NCBI GenBank assembly: GCA_046540255.1 | Contig: JBKHFJ010000001.1 | Location: 146,124-210,123, forward strand | Length of the DNA stretch: 64,000 nucleotides | Source of the DNA: Methanomassiliicoccales archaeon | GTDB taxonomy: Archaea > Thermoplasmatota > Thermoplasmata > Methanomassiliicoccales > JAAEEP01 | Direction: 5' to 3' | Shown here: piece by piece, positions 2,749 through 57,520 of the stretch | Layout of the letters: the number at the start of each line of letters is the position of its first letter | Numbering within the stretch: the first letter of the stretch is position 1 | Position numbers and translations under genes: made by a program | The notes under the pieces: generated by a model | Told to the model about the DNA's origin: nothing | Seen by the model: the letters and a program-made list of their open reading frames with translations, nothing else | Database searches by the model: none

Positions 2749-3393
2749 ATGGAATACCCCCGATGTGACCGATGCGGCCGTAAGGAGTGCAGGACCGGTG
2801 AGCCGCCCACCAACCCCCTATGCCCGCTCAGCAAGGAGAAGATCGAGACCCGGGAGATCGTCTCCATGTACCGGGGTGAGGAGGGGGACCTCTATAGGGT
2901 GGGGGCCAAGATCGAGGCGGAGAGCTACAGGGAGATCGACGGCGCCATTACCCCCATCCGCCCCAGGCTGGCCGAGGTCATCGCCTTCTGCCGGGAGATG
3001 GACATCGATAGGGTGGGGGTGGCCTTCTGCGCCGGGTTGGTGTGGGAGGCCGGCCGTGTATGCAAGGTGCTGGACGATAAGGGACTGGACGTGGCGTCGG
3101 TCATGTGCAAGTGCTTTTCGGTGGAGAAGGCAGATCTGGGCGTGCCGGAGGAGCACTACATCAGGCAGGGGGAGGAGAAGGGGTGCAATCCGCTCATGCA
3201 GGCCAGGCTGCTGAACCAGGTGGGCACCCAGCTCAACCTGATCGTGGGATTGTGCGTCGGCCATGATATCCTGTTCACCAGGCACAGTCAGGCCCCGGTT
3301 ACCACCTTGATAGTGAAGGACCGCATGTCAGGTCACAACCCGATGCCACCCCTGTACAGCGCCTACTTCCAGGAGATACTGGACAGGGAGTGA
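2749..3393 (+). CDS. DUF1847-like Cys-rich metal-binding protein
   Basis: Only the 3' third of track ORF 1768..3393 is non-overlapping. The first ATG after porB is at 2749 (MEYPRCDRCGRKEC...). The Cys-rich N-terminus and the GLCVGHD motif recall DUF1847 (family assigned from memory). Confidence 0.65.
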   Translation: MEYPRCDRCGRKECRTGEPPTNPLCPLSKEKIETREIVSMYRGEEGDLYRVGAKIEAESYREIDGAITPIRPRLAEVIAFCREMDIDRVGVAFCAGLVWEAGRVCKVLDDKGLDVASVMCKCFSVEKADLGVPEEHYIRQGEEKGCNPLMQARLLNQVGTQLNLIVGLCVGHDILFTRHSQAPVTTLIVKDRMSGHNPMPPLYSAYFQEILDRE

Positions 3394-4086
3394 TCAGTAG
3401 ACGCACTCTGTCTTCATACCGTGGAAGAGTGCCTCTATCTCCTTGATCCTCTTGCTGCTGAGGGGAGAGGCCATGCATGGCCTCAGTGGCGTGTTGATGT
3501 ACACCAGGTCGGGCTCGAGGGAGCGGCAGATCTCCGCCATCTCCTCCGCCTCGTGCTGGTTCTCCTCCAGGAACATCAGCTGCATCCTGAAATCCCCCCG
3601 ATACTCCCCGCTCAGCTTCTCCAGGCCCTGAAGCACCCGGGACAGGGTGATATGGCCCACCGGTCGGTTGACCCTGCAGAAGGTGTTCTCGTTGGCCGCG
3701 TCCAGCTTGGCCATCACCATATGGAAGTCCTCCAGCGACTCGATGGCCCCGGGATCGCAGAGGTGGCAGGCGTTGGTGAGTATGGCCACCTTGGCCGAGG
3801 TGCAATTCCTGACGGTCCGTGCCAGCTCCCCAAGGTTGGAGGCGAGCATGGGCTCCCCGGTGCCAGAGAAAGTGACGTAATCCGCCTCTCGCTTCATCTG
3901 CCCGAGCTCCGACCGCAGAAGGTGGGCCTTGACGAACTCGCTCTTCCTGGTGGTCAGGAATCCCCCGTTCCCCAGCTGGCAGTAGACGCAGTTGAGGGAG
4001 CAGACCTTGGGTTCCATGCATATGGGGTCCACTCCCAGGGACCTTCCCAGTCTCCAGGAACTCACCGGTCCGTAGACCAGCTTCAT
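3394..4086 (-). CDS. radical SAM protein
   Basis: 230 aa with the CxxxCxxC motif CSLNCVYC near the N-terminus, followed by FSGTGEP (SAM-binding GGE-like). Specific function unknown. Confidence 0.8.
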   Translation of the reverse strand: MKLVYGPVSSWRLGRSLGVDPICMEPKVCSLNCVYCQLGNGGFLTTRKSEFVKAHLLRSELGQMKREADYVTFSGTGEPMLASNLGELARTVRNCTSAKVAILTNACHLCDPGAIESLEDFHMVMAKLDAANENTFCRVNRPVGHITLSRVLQGLEKLSGEYRGDFRMQLMFLEENQHEAEEMAEICRSLEPDLVYINTPLRPCMASPLSSKRIKEIEALFHGMKTECVY

Positions 4087-26166: not shown

Positions 26167-26850
26167 TCAGATCCATTCCAGCAGCTTCGGCTCCTCGGTC
26201 TCCTGCACCTGCCTGATCTCGAAGGGCATCCACTTGGAGGAGACCGCATATCCCCTCATGTGCCTGATGCGCATCATCCGCCTCAGGTTCTGGTCGAACT
26301 TCATCTCGATGACCCCATCGGATATGGCCATCAGATGGTTCACCGTTTGGTCCTCGTGGACCCCTTCGTACAGGGTGAAGATGGCCGAACCGTACTGGGT
26401 CCTGATCCTGGAACTAAATATCTGGAAGAATTTAAGGACCACGTTCGGCTGGTTGTATAGGAAGAGGGTGGACAGGGAGTGGAGGAAGATCTTCAAAGGC
26501 CTCCCCACCTTCTGAGAGATGGCATCTATGTTGAACATGATGCCTTCGAGATCGACCACGTAGTGGACGTCGGACCTGTGCTCCGCGTCCCCGTTGTCGA
26601 ACGACCCCAACAGGCTGGTGTGATAGTCGATCAGGAACAGGTTGCTGCCCAGGGCGGAGTCCGCATCGATCCCGAACTTCTCCATTAGGGAGAGAACGCT
26701 GTCGGAGTCCATATCGGCGGTGATGAACACCACTGGCTCCCCCCTCTCCAGGTGGTCCTTGATCAGGGTGACGTTGAACTCGAGGGCACCGATCCCGGGG
26801 CTGCCCACGTTGAGCACCGTGCACCACTCTGGAAGTCTGTTCCTGATCAT
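26167..26850 (-). CDS. KaiC/RecA-superfamily single-domain protein with degenerate P-loop
   Basis: 227 aa. The expected GxxGxGK[ST] position reads VGSPGIGALEF (no Lys-Thr). The rest resembles COG0467/KaiC-like domains. Lies 7 nt downstream of the two-domain KaiC-like gene. Confidence 0.6.
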   Translation of the reverse strand: MIRNRLPEWCTVLNVGSPGIGALEFNVTLIKDHLERGEPVVFITADMDSDSVLSLMEKFGIDADSALGSNLFLIDYHTSLLGSFDNGDAEHRSDVHYVVDLEGIMFNIDAISQKVGRPLKIFLHSLSTLFLYNQPNVVLKFFQIFSSRIRTQYGSAIFTLYEGVHEDQTVNHLMAISDGVIEMKFDQNLRRMMRIRHMRGYAVSSKWMPFEIRQVQETEEPKLLEWI

Positions 26851-26857
26851 ATGATCC

Positions 26858-28309
26858 CTACACTATGGGGGTGAGCTGCACCCAACCCCCTCTCTCCCTT
26901 CTCCCGAACGAGATCACGTTGCACTCGGTGAAGGGCTCCTCCCCGTAGAGCAATATGGTTCCGCCGATGCGCTCGATCCTGATGTGGTTGTTGGCCAGGT
27001 CCGCCAGCTGCTCCCGCGACCTGGAAGAGGGGGCGACCAGTCCCACGAAGACCTCCCTTCGGCTCTTCACCGAGGCCAGGTGGTCCATGAGCTGGTCCAT
27101 CACCTCCCGTCCGTAGATGGACTCGATGGTGTCGAATCCCATCAAGGACAGGATGGGCCTCTGCGCCCCCTGCATCCTGTACTCCACCGTCCTCCAGTCC
27201 AGATCGGCGGAGGCGTCGGAGCCCTCCACGGGGAGCACGAAGTTCGCCTCGAAGCTGTCAAGCTGACTGGCGACCGCGGGGACCTTGACCAGGGCGTCGA
27301 ACTCGCCCTGGGGCAGGCCACGGGACACCAGGTTCCGCATCCCTTCCGGGCTCGATTTCCTCAGCGGGCTCCACAGCACCCCCCTCCCGGAGGCGGCGAA
27401 GTTGAGCACCAGGGAGGTCTCTATGGCCTGGGTGATAGAGGTGGGTATCCCCTCCCCCAGCTCGATCATGGTGATCGAGCCCCTCTCCAGGCCGCCACCG
27501 AGCATCCTGTCCAGGTCGGATATCCCGGTGGAGACCATCTCCCCCTGGTCCGGCAGGGGCTCCCAGCCATCCGGTATGTGAAGGCCGCCTGACCAGTCCC
27601 CACCGAAACTCATCATCTTCCCCCCACTCAGGGTGAACATGTACTTGGGCTGTTCTATCTCGCATCCCCTCAGCTTGTGAATATCCATCTCCCTGAGACG
27701 CCTCCGGTGGATCTCCTTGGAGGAGAGGTCGATCACCCCATCCCCCATGTAGTCAAGCTGCCCCTCCTGACTCTCCAGCACGATCAGGAGGTTGGCCCCC
27801 ATCTTCTCCACCAGGTTCCCCTGCAGGACGTTCATCAGGCGGTGACAGGGTATCTCGTACTTCTCCGCCATCGCATCCAGGCTGTCTATGACCACCAGGG
27901 ATCTCTGGGGGAGGTTCTCCTCGACCCTCTCGAAGATCGCCTCCAACTCCTGAAGCTCCCTGCCCAGGGTGAGGGTGATCTCCCCCTCCCCGATGGTCTG
28001 CTCCTCGATGCCCTTGAGGCCGTTCAGCGCGGCACGGGGGTCGCCCCGGTCATCCTCCGTCAGGGTCTGCTCCATCCTCTCCTTCAGCCAGGGGAACTGG
28101 GGGAACAGGGAGGAATCGGACACCCGGGTGGAGATGTAGTATCCCCTCTCCGTCTCGGCCATGTCCTCGATGGTCTGCAGGGCCAGGGTGGTCTTCCCGG
28201 CCCCGGGCCCGCCCCGGAGGATGAGGGAATGGCCCCCGGGATTGTTGAAAAAGCTTACTATCTCCTTGGGTATCCTGAACCCTTTCGATGGGACCATTCG
28301 AGTATTCAC
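26858..28309 (-). CDS. KaiC-like two-domain RecA-superfamily ATPase
   Basis: 483 aa. Domain 1 has Walker A GGPGAGKT and Walker B LVVIDSLD. Domain 2 (ISDLDRMLGGGLERGSITMIELGEGIPTS) lacks the P-loop lysine. Confidence 0.75.
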   Translation of the reverse strand: MNTRMVPSKGFRIPKEIVSFFNNPGGHSLILRGGPGAGKTTLALQTIEDMAETERGYYISTRVSDSSLFPQFPWLKERMEQTLTEDDRGDPRAALNGLKGIEEQTIGEGEITLTLGRELQELEAIFERVEENLPQRSLVVIDSLDAMAEKYEIPCHRLMNVLQGNLVEKMGANLLIVLESQEGQLDYMGDGVIDLSSKEIHRRRLREMDIHKLRGCEIEQPKYMFTLSGGKMMSFGGDWSGGLHIPDGWEPLPDQGEMVSTGISDLDRMLGGGLERGSITMIELGEGIPTSITQAIETSLVLNFAASGRGVLWSPLRKSSPEGMRNLVSRGLPQGEFDALVKVPAVASQLDSFEANFVLPVEGSDASADLDWRTVEYRMQGAQRPILSLMGFDTIESIYGREVMDQLMDHLASVKSRREVFVGLVAPSSRSREQLADLANNHIRIERIGGTILLYGEEPFTECNVISFGRRERGGWVQLTPIV

Positions 28310-29628: not shown

Positions 29629-31419
29629 ATGTGCGGGATAATCGGTTACGCGGGCGGCCGTAGGGCCGAGGAGGTCATACTGGACGGACTGAAGAGGCTG
29701 GAGTATCGAGGCTATGACTCGGCGGGTCTGGCGGTCAGGGGGAACGGGATCCAGGTGCACAAGGCCAAGGGTGAGATCGACGGACTTCGTCTTAGCAACC
29801 CCGGGCTGGAGGGGGAGTCGGGGGTCGGACACACCCGCTGGGCCACCTGCGGAAAGCCATCCAAGGTCAACGCCCATCCCTTCCTGGACTGCACCGGGAG
29901 CATCGCCCTGGTCCACAATGGCATCATCGAGAACCACTACTCCCTGAGGTCGGAGCTGGAGGCCGAGGGCCATCGCTTCACCTCGGAGACGGACACCGAG
30001 GTTCTGGTACATCTAATGGAGAGGTACCACGAGGGAGACCTCCACTCCTCCCTCACCAAGGCCCTGAGGGAGGTGAAGGGCACCTACGCCATCGCCGCCA
30101 TCGACTGGGATTCAGAGGAGATCGTGGCGGCCCGCAAGGAGAATCCCTTGGTGATAGGCCTCGGGGTGGGGGAGAACTTCGTGGCCTCCGATGTCACGCC
30201 ACTGCTTAACTACACCACCAAGGTGATCTACCTGATGGACGGTGACACCGCGGTGGTGAGGGCGGACGGGGTGAACATTTACGACCACACCGGCCAGGAG
30301 GTCCACCGCCCGCCCAGTCAGGTGAACTGGTCGGTGGAGGACGCCCAGAAGGGAGGTTTCGAGCATTTCATGCTCAAGGAGATATTCGAGCAACCCCGGG
30401 CCCTTCACGACACCATAGTGGGATCCCTGTCCAGGCTGGAAGAGGGGGACCTACTGGCCGATCCCCGGCCCGACTCGGTCAAGCTAATCGCCTGCGGTAC
30501 CTCCTACCACGCCGGGATGGTGGGGAAGTATCTGGTCGAGGAGCTGACCCGCCTGCCGGTGACGGTGGAGCTGGCCTCGGAGTACCGCTACTCCAGCGGG
30601 GTCTCCGAGTGTCCACTGGTCATGGTGATCTCCCAGTCGGGGGAGACCGCGGACGCCCTGGCCGCGCTCCGGGAGGCCAAGCGGAGGGGATGCCCCACCC
30701 TGGCCGTCACCAATGTGGTGGGCAGCACCCTCACCCGGGAGGCCGAGGAGGTCCTCTACACCCAGGCCGGTCCGGAGATCGGGGTGGCGGCCACCAAGAC
30801 TTTCCTCACACAGCTCGTGTCCATGTTCCCCATAGCCATGCAGCTCGGATCCAACAACAGGGCCCTGCACCCGGACGATATGCGCACCCTCAAGAGGGAG
30901 ATCAGGTCCCTGCCGTTCTACGTCCAGAGCGTGTTGGACCGGGCGGACGAGATCGGGGCGGCGGCGGAGATGTTCGACCGGGCAAGGGACGCCTTCTTCA
31001 TCGGTAGGAACATCAACTACCCCACCGTGCTCGAGGGAGCGCTGAAGATGAAGGAGATCTCCTACCTGCACGCGGAGGGGTACGCGGCCGGGGAGCTGAA
31101 GCACGGTCCCCTGGCCCTGGTGGGCCCCCACACTCCCACGGTGGCCGCCTGCGTGAGGGATCACACCTACGATAAGATGATGTCCAACATATCCGAGGTG
31201 GTGGCCAGGGAGGCCCCCGTTCTGGCTTTAGGATTCGAGGGTGACAGGGAGCTTCCTCAGCTGGCGGACCGGGTGCTGGAGGTCCCGGAGGTGCATCCCC
31301 TGATGACCCCCATACCGATCTCGGTGGTCCTTCAACTCCTCGCCTATCAGGTGGCCAAGAGGAGGGGATGCCCGATCGACAAGCCCAGGAACCTGGCCAA
31401 GAGCGTTACCGTGGAGTGA
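29629..31419 (+). CDS. glmS: glutamine--fructose-6-phosphate aminotransferase
   Basis: 596 aa with N-terminal MCGIIGY (Ntn Cys), two SIS domains, and the C-terminal KPRNLAKSVTVE signature. Confidence 0.95.
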   Translation: MCGIIGYAGGRRAEEVILDGLKRLEYRGYDSAGLAVRGNGIQVHKAKGEIDGLRLSNPGLEGESGVGHTRWATCGKPSKVNAHPFLDCTGSIALVHNGIIENHYSLRSELEAEGHRFTSETDTEVLVHLMERYHEGDLHSSLTKALREVKGTYAIAAIDWDSEEIVAARKENPLVIGLGVGENFVASDVTPLLNYTTKVIYLMDGDTAVVRADGVNIYDHTGQEVHRPPSQVNWSVEDAQKGGFEHFMLKEIFEQPRALHDTIVGSLSRLEEGDLLADPRPDSVKLIACGTSYHAGMVGKYLVEELTRLPVTVELASEYRYSSGVSECPLVMVISQSGETADALAALREAKRRGCPTLAVTNVVGSTLTREAEEVLYTQAGPEIGVAATKTFLTQLVSMFPIAMQLGSNNRALHPDDMRTLKREIRSLPFYVQSVLDRADEIGAAAEMFDRARDAFFIGRNINYPTVLEGALKMKEISYLHAEGYAAGELKHGPLALVGPHTPTVAACVRDHTYDKMMSNISEVVAREAPVLALGFEGDRELPQLADRVLEVPEVHPLMTPIPISVVLQLLAYQVAKRRGCPIDKPRNLAKSVTVE

Positions 31420-32400
31420 TCACACCAGCCTCTCCGGGCAGATGTCCCGTCGGGAGCAGTTCCTGCACTTCCCCGCCCGGTTGTGGTTCCTGTGCACCTC
31501 CCCGGTCTCGGCCAGCTTCCTCATCTCCTCCAACTTTGCGATGAGGAGCCCCTCGAGCTCCTCGGTGAACTCGATCTTGTGCTCCCCCCCATCGTACCTC
31601 AGCAGCCCGTGGGAGACCCGGTGGCCGTTCTCCTCGCTCAGCAGTAGACAGTAGGCGGCCAGCTGCAGTATGTGGGAGAACAGTGGCCCCCTGGGGGTCC
31701 TCCCCGTCTTCACCTCCACGGGTATCTGCTCACCGTCCATCTCGGTGATGTAGTCGGGTCTGCCGGAAAGCCCGTAGTCCTCCGACCGGAGCAGCCTGGA
31801 CTCCTTACGCCCCACGTACCGGATCTTGCCCACGATGTCCCGCTTCCTCTTCCGCTCCTTGACCACCCGGTCGGTGGCCAGGGTGAAGTAGAGGGCCACA
31901 ACCGCCGCGATCAACCAGGTGAGGGCGATGATCTCGTATATCAGGGCGGAATCCGGGTCCACGCCCAGGATGGTCACCGAGTTCAGCGCCAGGATGGCGG
32001 CCACTATGGAGAAGAGGACCACCCATCTCTCGTAGGCGGCCAGCCTCTCTTTCTCCTTCACCCTCATGGACATGAGCATCATGTAGAGGGCCGAGAGGAT
32101 CCATGGGATGGAGATCAGTCCCAGTATGGCGCTCCAGTCCTGGGCCTCCTCCACCGGCATCAGGGAGAGTCCCATCAGGGCCAGTGCGGTGGCCACAAAG
32201 GAGAACAGGATGACCACCTTCTCCCAGTTCCGGGCCTTCTTCTCCTGCTCCCGGATGGAGATGAGGTCCTTGGAGATGGCGTCGTGCTTCTTCTCCCCCT
32301 CCTCTAGAGCCTCCGAGGTCACCTCCTGTTTCCTGCCCAGCCACCAGCTGAGCGGGCAGTAACCGTATCGCTCCAGTTCGCTGGCCGAAATGTACTCCAT
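31420..32400 (-). CDS. Cas4/DUF83-like PD-(D/E)xK nuclease with a four-helix transmembrane insertion
   Basis: 326 aa. The N-terminus is ISASELERYGYCPLSWWL. Four hydrophobic about 22-aa segments span aa 60-175. Then come GLSGRPDYI...IPVEVKTG (D..ExK), QLAAYCLLL (QxxxY) and the C-terminal CRNCSRRDIC. Confidence 0.7.
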   Translation of the reverse strand: MEYISASELERYGYCPLSWWLGRKQEVTSEALEEGEKKHDAISKDLISIREQEKKARNWEKVVILFSFVATALALMGLSLMPVEEAQDWSAILGLISIPWILSALYMMLMSMRVKEKERLAAYERWVVLFSIVAAILALNSVTILGVDPDSALIYEIIALTWLIAAVVALYFTLATDRVVKERKRKRDIVGKIRYVGRKESRLLRSEDYGLSGRPDYITEMDGEQIPVEVKTGRTPRGPLFSHILQLAAYCLLLSEENGHRVSHGLLRYDGGEHKIEFTEELEGLLIAKLEEMRKLAETGEVHRNHNRAGKCRNCSRRDICPERLV

Positions 32401-32430
32401 CCAAAACGGTAAAGGAGGTCTCGATGGTAC

Positions 32431-33189
32431 TTATTCCTTGTTGCACTTCCAGTTGAGCAGGGAATCGTCCGCTATGCAGATGCCCTTGGGCGCCCGGAAG
32501 TCGTCGATGTAGCCGAACCAGTACACCACCAGCCCCTCCCCGAAGAGGTCCACGTACGGAAGGAGCTGCTTCTTGACGTTCTTCTTGATCTCCACATTGT
32601 CCCCGAAGGAAGCCTTCGACTCGATCCAGTTGATGGACCAGCCGTTCAGCTCCACCGGCTCCTCGAAGAGGCAGTCCGGGGTCTTGGGGTACTCCCCCCT
32701 CAGGTCCTCCTCCGTCTTGTAGCAGTGGCCCTGCTCATCCAGCCAATCGGAGAGCAACCTCTCTCCCCACAACCCTCTCTGGTACTGCTTCTCGGAGGCC
32801 CAGGGGGAGTAGACGTAGTCCGCGGCGGTGATCTCCTCGATCTCCCTCTTCAACCGCTCGTCCTCGATGGACCCGGGATCCCTCACGCACTTCCAGAAGT
32901 ACTTCTTGGACCGGTCGCTCTCCTGGAATATGAACAGTCCGGTGAGGATGGGAGAGAAGTTCCAGTCCTCCGCCAGCTCCAGCATGCTCCTCCCCCTCTC
33001 CCAGTCCTTAAGGATGCGCCTGGAGTGCTTCTTGACCTTGTAAAAACTCTTGGTGATGGTCCTGACCGTCTTCTGGGTGTAGACCACATTCAGGAATTCC
33101 TCGTCCATACCCATCTTGTCGGCCATATAAGCAATATCCCTGGGGCTGTTCAGCCCGTCGTATATTGCCTTGTAATCCTCGTACTTCAT
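32431..33189 (-). CDS. TPD-motif (C15orf41/CDIN1-like) PD-(D/E)xK nuclease with N-terminal helical/HTH-like region
   Basis: 252 aa with C-terminal KTPDCLF...INWIESKASFG (D...ExK). The N-terminal RGRSMLELAEDWNFSPILTGLFIFQE resembles the HTH region of the TPD family (from memory). Confidence 0.6.
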   Translation of the reverse strand: MKYEDYKAIYDGLNSPRDIAYMADKMGMDEEFLNVVYTQKTVRTITKSFYKVKKHSRRILKDWERGRSMLELAEDWNFSPILTGLFIFQESDRSKKYFWKCVRDPGSIEDERLKREIEEITAADYVYSPWASEKQYQRGLWGERLLSDWLDEQGHCYKTEEDLRGEYPKTPDCLFEEPVELNGWSINWIESKASFGDNVEIKKNVKKQLLPYVDLFGEGLVVYWFGYIDDFRAPKGICIADDSLLNWKCNKE

Positions 33190-33404
33190 CCTCTCACTGG
33201 GCGGTTGTAGCCGTTAATCAATATTTAAAGGTAACTGTCAAACAAGCGGGGAATTTTTCGCATCTGGACGTGGGACGGTTCCCTTCGGGAGAACGGTACC
33301 CAAAATCTTGATTACGGATGGGTGTCCATTCGAGGATACGATTATATATGGCTTATGGGCTTTGTCATATTGAGGGATGCCAGCAGGCAAGAATCACATG
33401 ATCA

Positions 33405-34052
33405 TTGGAGGGGATAATTACGGCAAATATGACGTTCTTAGCTAGCAGCCATGGTCCCCCGTGGCTTCCGGGAAGCGTGGCGGAGGCCAGGAAGTTCGCG
33501 TACTGGGGTCAACTGATATTCTTCATCTTCTTCTTCGTGTTCCTGGTCCTGGGGATACTCTCCATGGCCACCGGCGCCATAGCCATCGGTGTCTACCAGG
33601 TCGTCTCCGCCATCGTCAACATACTCATCGTTTTCCTCTTGAGGACGACCGTGTTCGATACCATCGATCAGGGTCGATTCGACGAGGCCAGCGACAGGTT
33701 GCTCATCTGGGGCATACTGGGCATAATATTCGGCATCATCCCGGGAATCCTTCTCATAATCGCCTTCATCAGGATACAGGACGTCTTCCAGCCGCAGTAC
33801 CAGCCCTACCCTCCACAGGGGCCTCCGGGACAGCAGCCGCCACAGCAGTACCAGCAGCCGCCACAGCAGTACCAGCAGCCGCCACAGCAGTACCAGCAGG
33901 ATAACCAGCAGTATCAGCCCGCCAGGCCCAAGACGGGACAGCAGACCACGGAGAAGTCCAAACAGAAGCACGAGATGGTTAAGTGCAAGAACTGTGGGGT
34001 ACAGTACCCCGCCTTCATGAGGACCTGCCCCAACTGTGGAGAGCCGCGCTGA
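33405..34052 (+). CDS. membrane protein with Q/P/Y-rich repeat linker and C-terminal zinc ribbon
   Basis: 215 aa (TTG at 33405, ATG alternative at 33429). Three to four hydrophobic helices, then PPQQYQQ x3, then CKNCG...CPNCG. Confidence 0.6.
   Translation: MEGIITANMTFLASSHGPPWLPGSVAEARKFAYWGQLIFFIFFFVFLVLGILSMATGAIAIGVYQVVSAIVNILIVFLLRTTVFDTIDQGRFDEASDRLLIWGILGIIFGIIPGILLIIAFIRIQDVFQPQYQPYPPQGPPGQQPPQQYQQPPQQYQQPPQQYQQDNQQYQPARPKTGQQTTEKSKQKHEMVKCKNCGVQYPAFMRTCPNCGEPR
33831..33899 (+). repeat. 21-bp perfect tandem repeat x3.3 (CAGCAGCCGCCACAGCAGTAC)
   Basis: Units at 33831-33851, 33852-33872 and 33873-33893 are identical, followed by a partial fourth. Encodes QQPPQQY repeats. Confidence 0.9.
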
Positions 34053-56443: not shown

Positions 56444-57520
56444 CTACTCGGACACCTCCTTCTCCTCTTCCTGTTCCGTCTCGGGCTCCTCTGTCCCTTC
56501 CTCAGCTGTCCCTTCCTCAGGCTCCTCGGTCCCCTTCTCGGATCCCTCCGACCCGGTCGGGGCGGATTCCTCGTCGGGGATCTCGGCGGTCTTGGCTTCC
56601 ACCTTGACCTCTTCCTCGGTCTCCACGGCGGTCTCTATCTCGGAGACCTCCTCTCCCGGCTCGACCTCCTCGGTCTCCACGGCGGTCTCTATCTCGGAGA
56701 CCTCCTCTCCCGGCTCGACCTCCTCGGTCTCCACGGCGGTCTCTATCTCGGAGACCTCCTCTCCGGGCTCGACCTCCTCTCCGGGCTCGACCTCCTCGGT
56801 CTCCAAGGTGGCCTCATCGACCTCATCACTGGCGTCGACGTAGGCCTCGCCCCTCTCCTCGGCCTCCTTTCTCTCCTCTGCCTCAACCCGGGCGAAGACC
56901 TCTGGGAGGAGCTCCTTGGCCTCGGTGGTGGAGAGGACGTCGATCTCGTCAGGCAGCCGAGCATCCGGGGCCATGATCTCCACCTTGACCCCTATGGTGC
57001 CCCTCTTCAGCTTGGCGGTGGCGAAGCCTGACCTGATGAACTCGAGCTTGGGGGCCCCGCAGAACTTGATGTAACCGTCCTTGAACTTCTCCGTCCGGTG
57101 CCTCTGACCGGTGAGCTTCCCCGCGAGCACCACCTGGCAGCCCTTGGCCCCCGATTCCATTATCCGCCTGACGGTGGAGTGGCCGGCCCTCCTGAAGTGC
57201 CAACCCCTCTCCAGGGCAAAGGCCAGCTTCTCGGCCATGATCTGGGCGTTGAGGTTGGCCTCCTCCACCTCCTGCACCTCGATCTGGGGATTGTCGAAGG
57301 AGAAGTTCTCCTCGATGTTCCTGGTCAGCGTCTTGATGGCCGCACCTCGACGCCCGATGACCAGTCCGGGTCTCTCGGTCACCAGGGTGACCCGGGTGCC
57401 CATGGGGGTCCTCTGAACCTCCACGCCTCCGAATCCGGCCCTGTCCACTTCCTTCATGAGGTACTCCTTGAGCAGGACCCTCCTGATGTTCTCGGCTATG
57501 AAATTCCTCTCACTGGCCAT
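56444..57520 (-). CDS. rps3: 30S ribosomal protein uS3 with about 150-aa acidic repeat C-terminal tail
   Basis: 358 aa. The KH domain core (first about 205 aa) is followed by an EEVEPGEEVSEIETAVET x3 tail. Confidence 0.95.
   Translation of the reverse strand: MASERNFIAENIRRVLLKEYLMKEVDRAGFGGVEVQRTPMGTRVTLVTERPGLVIGRRGAAIKTLTRNIEENFSFDNPQIEVQEVEEANLNAQIMAEKLAFALERGWHFRRAGHSTVRRIMESGAKGCQVVLAGKLTGQRHRTEKFKDGYIKFCGAPKLEFIRSGFATAKLKRGTIGVKVEIMAPDARLPDEIDVLSTTEAKELLPEVFARVEAEERKEAEERGEAYVDASDEVDEATLETEEVEPGEEVEPGEEVSEIETAVETEEVEPGEEVSEIETAVETEEVEPGEEVSEIETAVETEEEVKVEAKTAEIPDEESAPTGSEGSEKGTEEPEEGTAEEGTEEPETEQEEEKEVSE
56614..56806 (-). repeat. 54-bp tandem repeat x3 plus an 18-bp sub-repeat inside the rps3 3' region
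   Basis: The unit start CCTCGGT recurs at 56614, 56668 and 56722 (period 54) and again at 56794 after an extra 18-bp CTCCTCTCCGGGCTCGAC duplication. Units are near-identical. Confidence 0.9.

Follow-up and report, generated by a model that had tools for sequence, protein, structure and literature searches.

Solo-Cas4 proteins such as SSO0001 (structure 4IC1) and the Methanosarcina mazei Solo-Cas4 (PMC12501428) are found away from CRISPR systems, and the known ones are soluble oligomers. Here, we describe a Cas4-family nuclease that is predicted to be embedded in the membrane, encoded in a 64,000-nucleotide (nt) stretch of DNA from a Methanomassiliicoccales archaeon (GenBank assembly GCA_046540255.1, contig JBKHFJ010000001.1, positions 146,124 to 210,123 of the forward strand), which we refer to as the window. 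The gene for this protein of 326 amino acids (aa) occupies positions 31420..32400 of the window on the minus strand. Upstream of it, on the same strand, lies the gene for a 252-aa nuclease of the TPD/CDIN1 (C15orf41) family (32431..33189), and the open reading frame (ORF) list places the two 30 nt apart. An earlier note on this DNA had pointed to the pair; its tandem, same-strand arrangement holds, and the lengths that it gave for both ORFs and for the spacer are exact.

The 326-aa protein shares with solo-Cas4 the D..ExK and QxxxY motifs, the one plus three cysteines, a location away from CRISPR and a matching fold. Unlike the soluble solo-Cas4 proteins, it is predicted to be integral to the membrane, with two pairs of transmembrane (TM) helices, and its gene behaves as a syntenic core gene in Thermoplasmatota. 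The Cas4 proteins of CRISPR adaptation (8D3L/8D3Q and 7MI4) give the best matches in structure and profile and share the catalytic and cluster residues, but they lack the membrane insert, and here neither cas1, cas2 nor an array is nearby. The Fe-S nuclease domains of Dna2, AddB and MGME1 have the same superfamily fold, and the adjacency of FEN1 in one lineage resembles Dna2; the 326-aa protein differs in having no helicase domain and in its predicted membrane embedding. SNIPE, which acts in E. coli (PMC13190303), is a nuclease with a cytoplasmic catalytic domain and an anchor in the cytoplasmic membrane, and the concept of spatial self/non-self control fits both proteins. However, SNIPE has one TM helix, at the N-terminus, in addition to a GIY-YIG nuclease and DUF4041, and its gene behaves as a variable defense gene, whereas Pfam shows only PDDEXK_1 and Cas_Cas4 in the 326-aa protein, whose TM helices are internal and whose gene behaves as a core gene.

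For the upstream gene, the closest described system is CDIN1 and Codanin-1. Human CDIN1 is a Mg-dependent RNA exonuclease that prefers RNA:DNA hybrids and binds DNA without digesting it; its catalytic set is E166/D196/E214/K216, and it needs Codanin-1 to feed it substrate (PMC13463051). C15orf41 orthologs are present in Euryarchaeota and are unusually near the human protein (PMC7092493). The archaeal protein, whose activity is putative, shares the two-domain layout and the E/D/E/K catalytic set, but the human partner is the eukaryotic Codanin-1, whereas the conserved neighbor here is a membrane Cas4.

The Cas4 hallmarks that the earlier note had seen in the 326-aa protein are borne out by profile scores, motif alignments and invariant residues. 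Residues 178-322 of the native protein match the TIGR00372 cas4 model with 93.9 bits, against a curated 'equivalog' cutoff of 65, and also match PF01930 (2e-11) and PF12705 (7e-16). The motifs GRPDYI, VEVKTGR, QLAAY and CRNCSRRDIC (CxxCx5C) align residue by residue with SSO0001 (4IC1), the type I-C Cas4 (8D3L) and a Cas4-Cas1 fusion (7MI4). Among 52 relatives with 0, 2, 4 or 8 TM helices, C15, C312, C315, C321, K231, H243 and Y250 are invariant, and H39, D216, E229 and Q246 are nearly so. Conservation and the TIGR00372 alignment define an N-terminal part, predicted to be cytoplasmic (residues 1-58; 32227..32400, minus strand), that holds the Cys helix with C15 and the G..H motif with H39. Alignments and invariant columns likewise define the Cas4 alpha/beta nuclease core (residues 187-326; 31423..31842, minus strand), with D216, E229, K231, Q246, Y250 and C312/C315/C321.

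A Cas4-like fold on both sides of the insert, which the earlier note had named as a point on which its proposal could fail, is upheld. The N-terminal 61 residues alone align to positions 2-45 of TIGR00372, and when the insert is deleted (residues 1-58 joined to 178-326), the construct aligns end to end, to positions 2-179 of 180, with 98.1 bits and an E-value (E) of 5e-28. The AlphaFold model, made with 49 homologs, has a predicted local distance difference test score (pLDDT) of 82.9, highest in the core, and a predicted template modeling score of 0.72. It consists of two short N-terminal helices, a long helix (30-80), two further helices (86-113 and 117-142), a second long helix (149-186) and the canonical alpha/beta core. 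The best Foldseek matches of this model are the Cas4 structures 8D3Q/8D3L/7MI4, MGME1, SSO0001 (4IC1), 4R5Q, Dna2 and the Argonaute-associated Cas4-family ACE1; the match to 8D3Q (E 1e-6) covers the core only, and the TM bundle has no counterpart. Viral folds in BFVD gave Cas4-like matches at the level of the core only, with root-mean-square deviations of 15-20 A in long alignments. We regard it as confirmed that the 326-aa protein is a Cas4-family, RecB-like PD-(D/E)xK Fe-S nuclease, with motifs and fold on both sides of the insert; from the conserved residues, it would be expected to bind a [4Fe-4S] cluster and to be catalytic. Full-length homologs form >120 clusters at 90% identity. We rejected a Pfam match to MFS_1 (24.4 bits, gathering score 33.4), together with SLATT, Bax1-I and similar hits, as compositional likeness of TM segments.

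The insert comprises ~125 aa with four TM helices, placed between the N-terminal Cys/His helices and the core. The four hydrophobic segments of ~22 residues that had been noticed here are present both by hydropathy and as AlphaFold helices, at residues ~62-82, 90-111, 125-146 and 155-175, with Kyte-Doolittle means over 19 residues of 2.0-2.5. Residues 58-120 and 122-186 are mutually homologous, with a local score of 87 compared with 25.4 +/- 4.6 for shuffles. Rather than a single four-helix unit, the insert contains one ~62-aa 2-TM hairpin twice, in tandem. Unit 1, delineated by hydropathy, the AlphaFold model, the repeat and the hairpin profile, spans residues 59-120 with TM1 and TM2 (32041..32226, minus strand), and unit 2 spans residues 121-186 with TM3 and TM4 and a K/R-rich linker helix (31843..32040, minus strand).

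The hairpin behaves as a module across the family. Its profile is found once in relatives of 260-285 aa, twice in those of ~325 aa and four times in those of 500-600 aa (in a few of which three copies were detected), and a 198-aa relative (P0247) is free of the insert, the His-motif helix being joined directly to the core. The helix number is always even, giving a 2/4/8-TM series, and neither the N-terminal Cys helix nor the C-terminal CxxCxnC is lost in any member of this series. Within the TM region, column identity is 58%, compared with 74% in the core, and T71, G77, W100 and E156 are invariant. Cytoplasmic segments have, on average, 3.9 lysines and arginines ahead of TM1, 3.8 in the stretch between hairpins and 5.4 beyond TM4, against 0.1 and 0.2 in the two predicted external loops. 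This pattern indicates an N-in/C-in topology, with the four cluster cysteines all on the cytoplasmic side. The earlier note had argued that an even number of helices would keep the cysteines on one side of the membrane, and the family series and the loop charges together bear this argument out. Overall, we consider the membrane-inserted architecture and its topology to be very probable.

Bacterial relatives divide the same protein between two genes. About 49 of 149 non-self representative matches are proteins of ~172 aa with one TM helix at the start and without the Cys helix; the named ones come from Anaerolineales (Chloroflexota). In all three independent loci that were readable, a small same-strand upstream ORF supplies ASEIGEYLYCRRAWWF-type Cys helices, the G..H motif and one TM helix. 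The small subunit (~78 aa) consists of the Cys helix, the His motif and TM1, and the large one (~172 aa) of TM2 and the nuclease core. These upstream ORFs rule out that the ~172-aa proteins are truncated gene calls or N-anchored Cas4 proteins without the first Cys. Split loci, from Anaerolineales and related bacteria, were seen in the fetched loci L008 (3697-4448), L174 (910-1784), L175 (~2760-3519) and L176 (~1520-2275), and the junction takes a different form in each of the three independent cases: the two ORFs overlap by 4 nt in L008, are 14 nt apart in L174, with a GAGGTGA ribosome-binding site in the spacer, and are separated by an in-frame stop and one further codon in L175/L176. As the gene layout indicates, the bacterial enzyme is split at the external turn of the hairpin. 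Since the split falls at that turn and the Cys-helix piece is kept, the helices of a hairpin would pair with each other, and the core would need the Cys helix even when it is on a separate chain. We also observed that the small-subunit ORF is uncalled in L175 and L176 and that many large subunits have an extra Cys directly after the QxxxY tyrosine.

A scan for the N-terminal motif, with each species represented by a single genome, identified 483 genomes with relatives. The 80 best loci all belong to Thermoplasmatota, namely Methanomassiliicoccales, other Thermoplasmata and 'Ca. Haladaptatiplasma'; the limit to the best 80 skews both locus sets that we used, from species and from metagenomes, toward relatives of the query. 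Genes in the fetched loci are crude longest-ORF calls, and partners were sought with tblastn at 1e-5, so that very divergent ones may escape. The membrane Cas4 is a vertically inherited core gene of Thermoplasmatota in housekeeping contexts.

The absence of a CRISPR context, which had been noted for the locus, extends well beyond it. There is no CRISPR array in the window, PADLOC found no other cas gene among its 65 ORFs, and 174 related sequences totaling 1.99 Mb contain no CRISPR-like array. All Cas matches in the window come from the 326-aa protein, including those to the 'Cas1b' and 'Cas1g' models, which represent Cas4-Cas1 fusions and match its Cas4 part. Scans of viral contigs, including IMG/VR, found relatives of neither the Cas4 nor the TPD protein, and matches on plasmids are confined to the core (residues 191-326), with no full-length copy. 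It is highly likely that the membrane Cas4 is independent of CRISPR.

The 252-aa protein is a full-length member of PF14811 (E 1.8e-43, 148.1 bits against a gathering score of 27), and an identical database entry bears the name 'C15orf41 family protein'. Its catalytic residues E143, D172 (in the TPD motif), E190 and K192 (in WIESK), encoded at 32614..32763 (minus strand), are invariant in 44 homologs, and the spacing of 18 between D and E is that of human CDIN1 (D196-E214). The family assignment with its PD-(D/E)xK motif, as originally proposed, is therefore solid. The AlphaFold model (pLDDT 95.3) has a helical N-domain (residues 1-153, nine helices), a long helix and an alpha/beta C-domain with a mixed sheet, in agreement with the two-domain layout described for CDIN1 (PMC13463051). 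A sequence search of the PDB gave no significant match, and a fold search reached a best E of 0.09, with weak resemblances only to restriction-endonuclease-like and AraC-type helix-turn-helix folds; because these resemblances are so weak, the helix-turn-helix-like N-terminus that had been suggested for this protein stays unconfirmed. The earlier note had also called the family uncharacterized in archaea. Its eukaryotic member has now been characterized as an RNA exonuclease (PMC13463051), and since CDIN1 binds but does not cut DNA, a description of the locus as two DNA nucleases is probably wrong.

Are the two genes a unit? Of the 78 species loci that could be evaluated, 60 have the TPD gene immediately upstream of the membrane Cas4 gene in the same orientation. 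Starting from TPD, the membrane Cas4 is the next gene downstream in 63 of the 73 evaluable loci from metagenomes; the pair thus recurs in other genomes, as the earlier note had asked. In a midpoint-rooted neighbor-joining tree, two deep clades have the pair and two clades without TPD lie between them, which makes it probable that the arrangement is ancestral. The short same-strand gap is kept at these 60 and 63 loci, even between clades whose Cas4 proteins are only ~42-45% identical, despite rearrangement upstream of TPD, where a membrane Zn-ribbon gene lies at -1.0 kb, -2.3 kb or -3.1 kb. In the window, a TATA-like element is found 5' of TPD and none is visible on reading the 30-nt spacer (32401..32430, minus strand). 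From the letters, we read TTTAAATA at 33222..33229 (minus strand), 33-40 nt 5' of the TPD ATG and followed by a GAGG Shine-Dalgarno-like motif, as a candidate archaeal TATA box. On this layout, the TPD and Cas4 genes are probably co-transcribed. At L073, a calcineurin-like phosphoesterase (Metallophos) fills the TPD position on the same strand. The two-nuclease module that had been proposed holds in part: the tandem pair is frequent, but each gene also occurs alone, and the pair is always found in glmS synteny. We are evenly divided on whether TPD is a functional partner of the membrane Cas4 in this clade.

The TPD-less loci (the 18 with 4-TM forms and those of the 2-TM and 8-TM variants) have different housekeeping surroundings, which include an IF-2B/MtnA-like isomerase, aconitase X, Nop5, the CCA-adding enzyme, ribosomal L15e and pyruvate:ferredoxin oxidoreductase. 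Conversely, L157 (5001-6171) shows the same synteny of membrane Zn-ribbon gene, TPD, glmS and nucleoside triphosphate (NTP)-transferase without Cas4, and its gap of ~370 nt contains no recognizable Cas4 remnant. In a high-GC lineage (L152-L156, L158, L160, L169 and L172), TPD is in another context, and no Cas4 was seen in the 0.45-5 kb downstream flanks.

Further neighbors of the membrane Cas4 were recorded in other lineages. In L093, a 2-TM membrane Cas4 is followed after 48 nt, on the same strand, by the gene for a FEN1 flap endonuclease (2051-2959), and a YjeF/Nnr gene is upstream of Cas4 both there and in L073. SSB and RecN surround a bacterial split form, and SMC is present in L082. A lamin-tail-domain (LTD) protein with two PLD-like domains and a PKD domain overlaps the start of the 4-TM Cas4 gene in L081 (7414-10020), and another LTD protein overlaps the start of an 8-TM Cas4 gene in L005 (3-641). 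CPBP/Abi-type intramembrane proteases are encoded directly downstream of Cas4 in L034 (3437-4906) and in L042, L049, L051, L059, L060, L062 and L068; these archaeal assignments were made by eye from EExxxR, FxxxH and HxxxN motifs and a zinc ribbon. In the bacterial L174, the protease downstream (1781-2470) has a Pfam Rce1-like match, and Mom and DUF968 are also present. FEN1, the metallophosphoesterase and the LTD-PLD protein were considered as recurrent partners and rejected, each having been seen once among the fetched loci; the only second trace of a metallophosphoesterase is a weak match of 31% identity several kb upstream in L081.

If the 326-aa protein is active, it would be a cytoplasm-facing, integral-membrane Fe-S Cas4 nuclease. 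The two hairpins would interrupt the loop that leads from the His-motif helix to the first strand of the core, and because each would enter and exit on the cytoplasmic side, the N-terminal Cys helix could still join the three C-terminal cysteines in closing the cluster. The long continuous helices, or stalks (30-80 and 149-186), may form a rigid connection between the active-site domain and the membrane. DNA ends or flaps would be the substrates of the Cas4 domain, the TPD protein would trim the RNA strand of hybrids, and the tether would limit an activity that could be genotoxic to substrates at the membrane's inner face. Here, we infer the physical partnership of Cas4 and TPD, their substrates and their biological role.

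Tentatively, we favor a CRISPR-independent, membrane-tethered housekeeping nuclease unit, although we would put this at somewhat short of an even prospect. Its housekeeping behavior, the scattered maintenance neighbors, the activity of CDIN1 on hybrids and the kinship with Dna2 lead us to favor genome maintenance as its role, and with a little more reserve, we suggest that DNA ends or flaps and RNA:DNA hybrids may be processed by this tethered unit. Several observations weigh against this view. No TPD-positive locus has lost the convergent glmS or the NTP-transferase gene, and because the pair is always nested in this synteny, functional linkage is inseparable from inherited gene order. TPD is missing from 18 4-TM loci among the 78 and from the 2-TM and 8-TM variants examined, and membrane Cas4 is missing from 10 of the 73 TPD loci. 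The FEN1, metallophosphoesterase and LTD-PLD neighbors are single cases, and LTD and LTD-PLD proteins, CPBP/Abi-type proteases and Mom (L174) as neighbors hint at envelope or defense roles. There is no known reason for a membrane tether in genome maintenance. Finally, the whole view is built from sequence, models and gene order, and the TM and topology calls within it are based on hydropathy, charge bias and AlphaFold.

The main rival to the housekeeping reading, which we consider unlikely, is entry-point defense or uptake processing. Here, the tethered nuclease would cut DNA arriving through the envelope, be it from a virus, a plasmid, a vesicle or the environment, and spare the nucleoid, while TPD would remove RNA or hybrid parts of the invaders. 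The modeled placement of the active site, cytoplasmic and on a rigid tether, suits such a role, and the Cas4 family is often linked to defense (PMC5704561). SNIPE offers a precedent of a membrane-bound nuclease whose tether prevents self-cleavage (PMC13190303), but it has no homologous domain in common with the 326-aa protein. The LTD proteins at the gene starts in L081 (with PLD-like domains) and L005, and the CPBP/Abi-type proteases downstream in one archaeal clade and in L174, with its Mom and DUF968, would also be at home here. On the other hand, the gene is single-copy and vertically inherited in housekeeping contexts throughout a phylum-level lineage, neither patchy nor in defense islands, and its TM region is conserved at 58% column identity, with no diversification. 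These features, together with host-like base composition and the absence of copies from the viral contigs and plasmids scanned, disfavor the defense role that the earlier note had entertained. As to the proximity to defense islands that it proposed to check, PADLOC finds the Cas4 domain alone at this locus.

Less likely again is the absence of any functional pair, with Cas4 working alone, the hairpins serving as a localization or sequestration device and TPD adjoining by inherited gene order. The constant glmS and NTP-transferase genes at TPD-positive loci speak for this, as do the TPD-less 2-TM, 8-TM and 18 4-TM loci and the 10 TPD loci without Cas4, L157 included. It sits poorly with a short-gap, same-strand order that outlasts both the divergence of Cas4 to ~42-45% identity and the upstream rearrangement, with a spacer that has no promoter-like element and with L073, where another phosphoesterase takes the TPD position. 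CDIN1, moreover, depends on a partner protein (PMC13463051).

A bolder proposal, which we think improbable, is that the membrane Cas4 proteins form an unrecognized, domain-spanning class with one, two or four hairpins plus the bacterial splits, in which the Fe-S cluster clamps together an array of transmembrane hairpins at its cytoplasmic ends. A ring oligomer might then form a nuclease-guarded conduit, or a sensor that couples membrane events to cleavage; the toroidal form of soluble Cas4 would be the model for such a putative ring of hairpins.

It is very improbable that the protein is a CRISPR adaptation Cas4 acting in trans with cas1-cas2 elsewhere in the genome. Its score above the TIGR00372 'equivalog' cutoff, the PADLOC Cas4 model matches and the database name 'CRISPR-associated protein Cas4' would fit this. 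However, cas1, cas2 and arrays are absent from the window and arrays from the 1.99 Mb (174 sequences) of related loci, the conserved neighbors are housekeeping genes, and a membrane tether would be ill-suited to assembly on the Cas1-Cas2 integrase. An artefact, i.e. a misassembled or miscalled fusion of a membrane protein and Cas4 fragments, has its unusual architecture in its favor and is rejected with near certainty because the same uninterrupted ORF recurs in hundreds of independent assemblies at 40-98% identity, with conserved residues on both sides of the insert and inside it and a confident model.

The earlier note did not recall a transmembrane-inserted Cas4, and we likewise found no paper describing one, or a split membrane Cas4; a study of Cas4 phylogenomics makes no mention of TM segments. 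Databases already contain sequences of the family, named automatically as, for example, 'CRISPR-associated protein Cas4', and it is the architecture that is apparently undescribed. A large and easily recognized family is thus at present labeled as ordinary 'CRISPR-associated Cas4'. It illustrates that the Fe-S nuclease fold can tolerate and conserve an internal membrane domain of variable hairpin copy number. The conserved pair with an archaeal homolog of CDIN1, the human anemia nuclease, provides a simple prokaryotic system in which to study the substrates and partners of CDIN1-type RNA nucleases. If the tether does restrict the nuclease in space, the principle of SNIPE would extend to a different fold and to archaea.

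The remaining observations concern the surroundings of the pair. The closest database entries are 98% (Cas4) and 100% (TPD) identical, and both are named for Methanomassiliicoccales. The GC content at third codon positions of the two genes of the pair, 0.90 in one and 0.89 in the other, equals that of their neighbors and is host-like. These neighbors include glycerol kinase, glycerol-3-phosphate dehydrogenase, KaiC/GvpD-like ATPases, a sugar nucleotidyltransferase, GlmS, a membrane zinc-ribbon protein, AlaX, an MJ1316-domain protein, adenine deaminase, a phosphoribosyltransferase and an ABC transporter. The Cas4 gene and the convergent glmS are back to back, their stops abutting at 31419/31420 with zero intergenic bases, and in most related loci the tblastn matches end ~7-28 nt apart; ends this close leave no room for separate terminators. 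Scans of the window for sigma-70 promoters and intrinsic terminators were uninformative, the host being an archaeon.

Divergent from TPD, at 33405-34052 (plus strand), is a conserved gene for a 215-aa membrane protein with a C-terminal zinc ribbon and no Pfam family. This gene is found in most syntenic loci at a varying distance, and in the window, its product has a Q/P-rich tract (QQPPQQY three times) that arises from a perfect 21-nt tandem repeat at 33831-33899. Two adjacent KaiC/GvpD-like P-loop ATPase genes at 26167-28309 (minus strand) are kept beside the NTP-transferase/glmS block in related genomes (L001 and L003). Among the 65 ORFs of the window, PADLOC also matched one to the mad3 and 'homing endonuclease' models (E 2e-34) and others to pVip/kinase, AriA and HEC models, which probably reflect generic domains. 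Farther along, the ORF at 56444-57520 (minus strand) contains a near-perfect, coding 54-nt tandem repeat of 3.1 copies (56613-56797), followed by an 18-nt sub-repeat.

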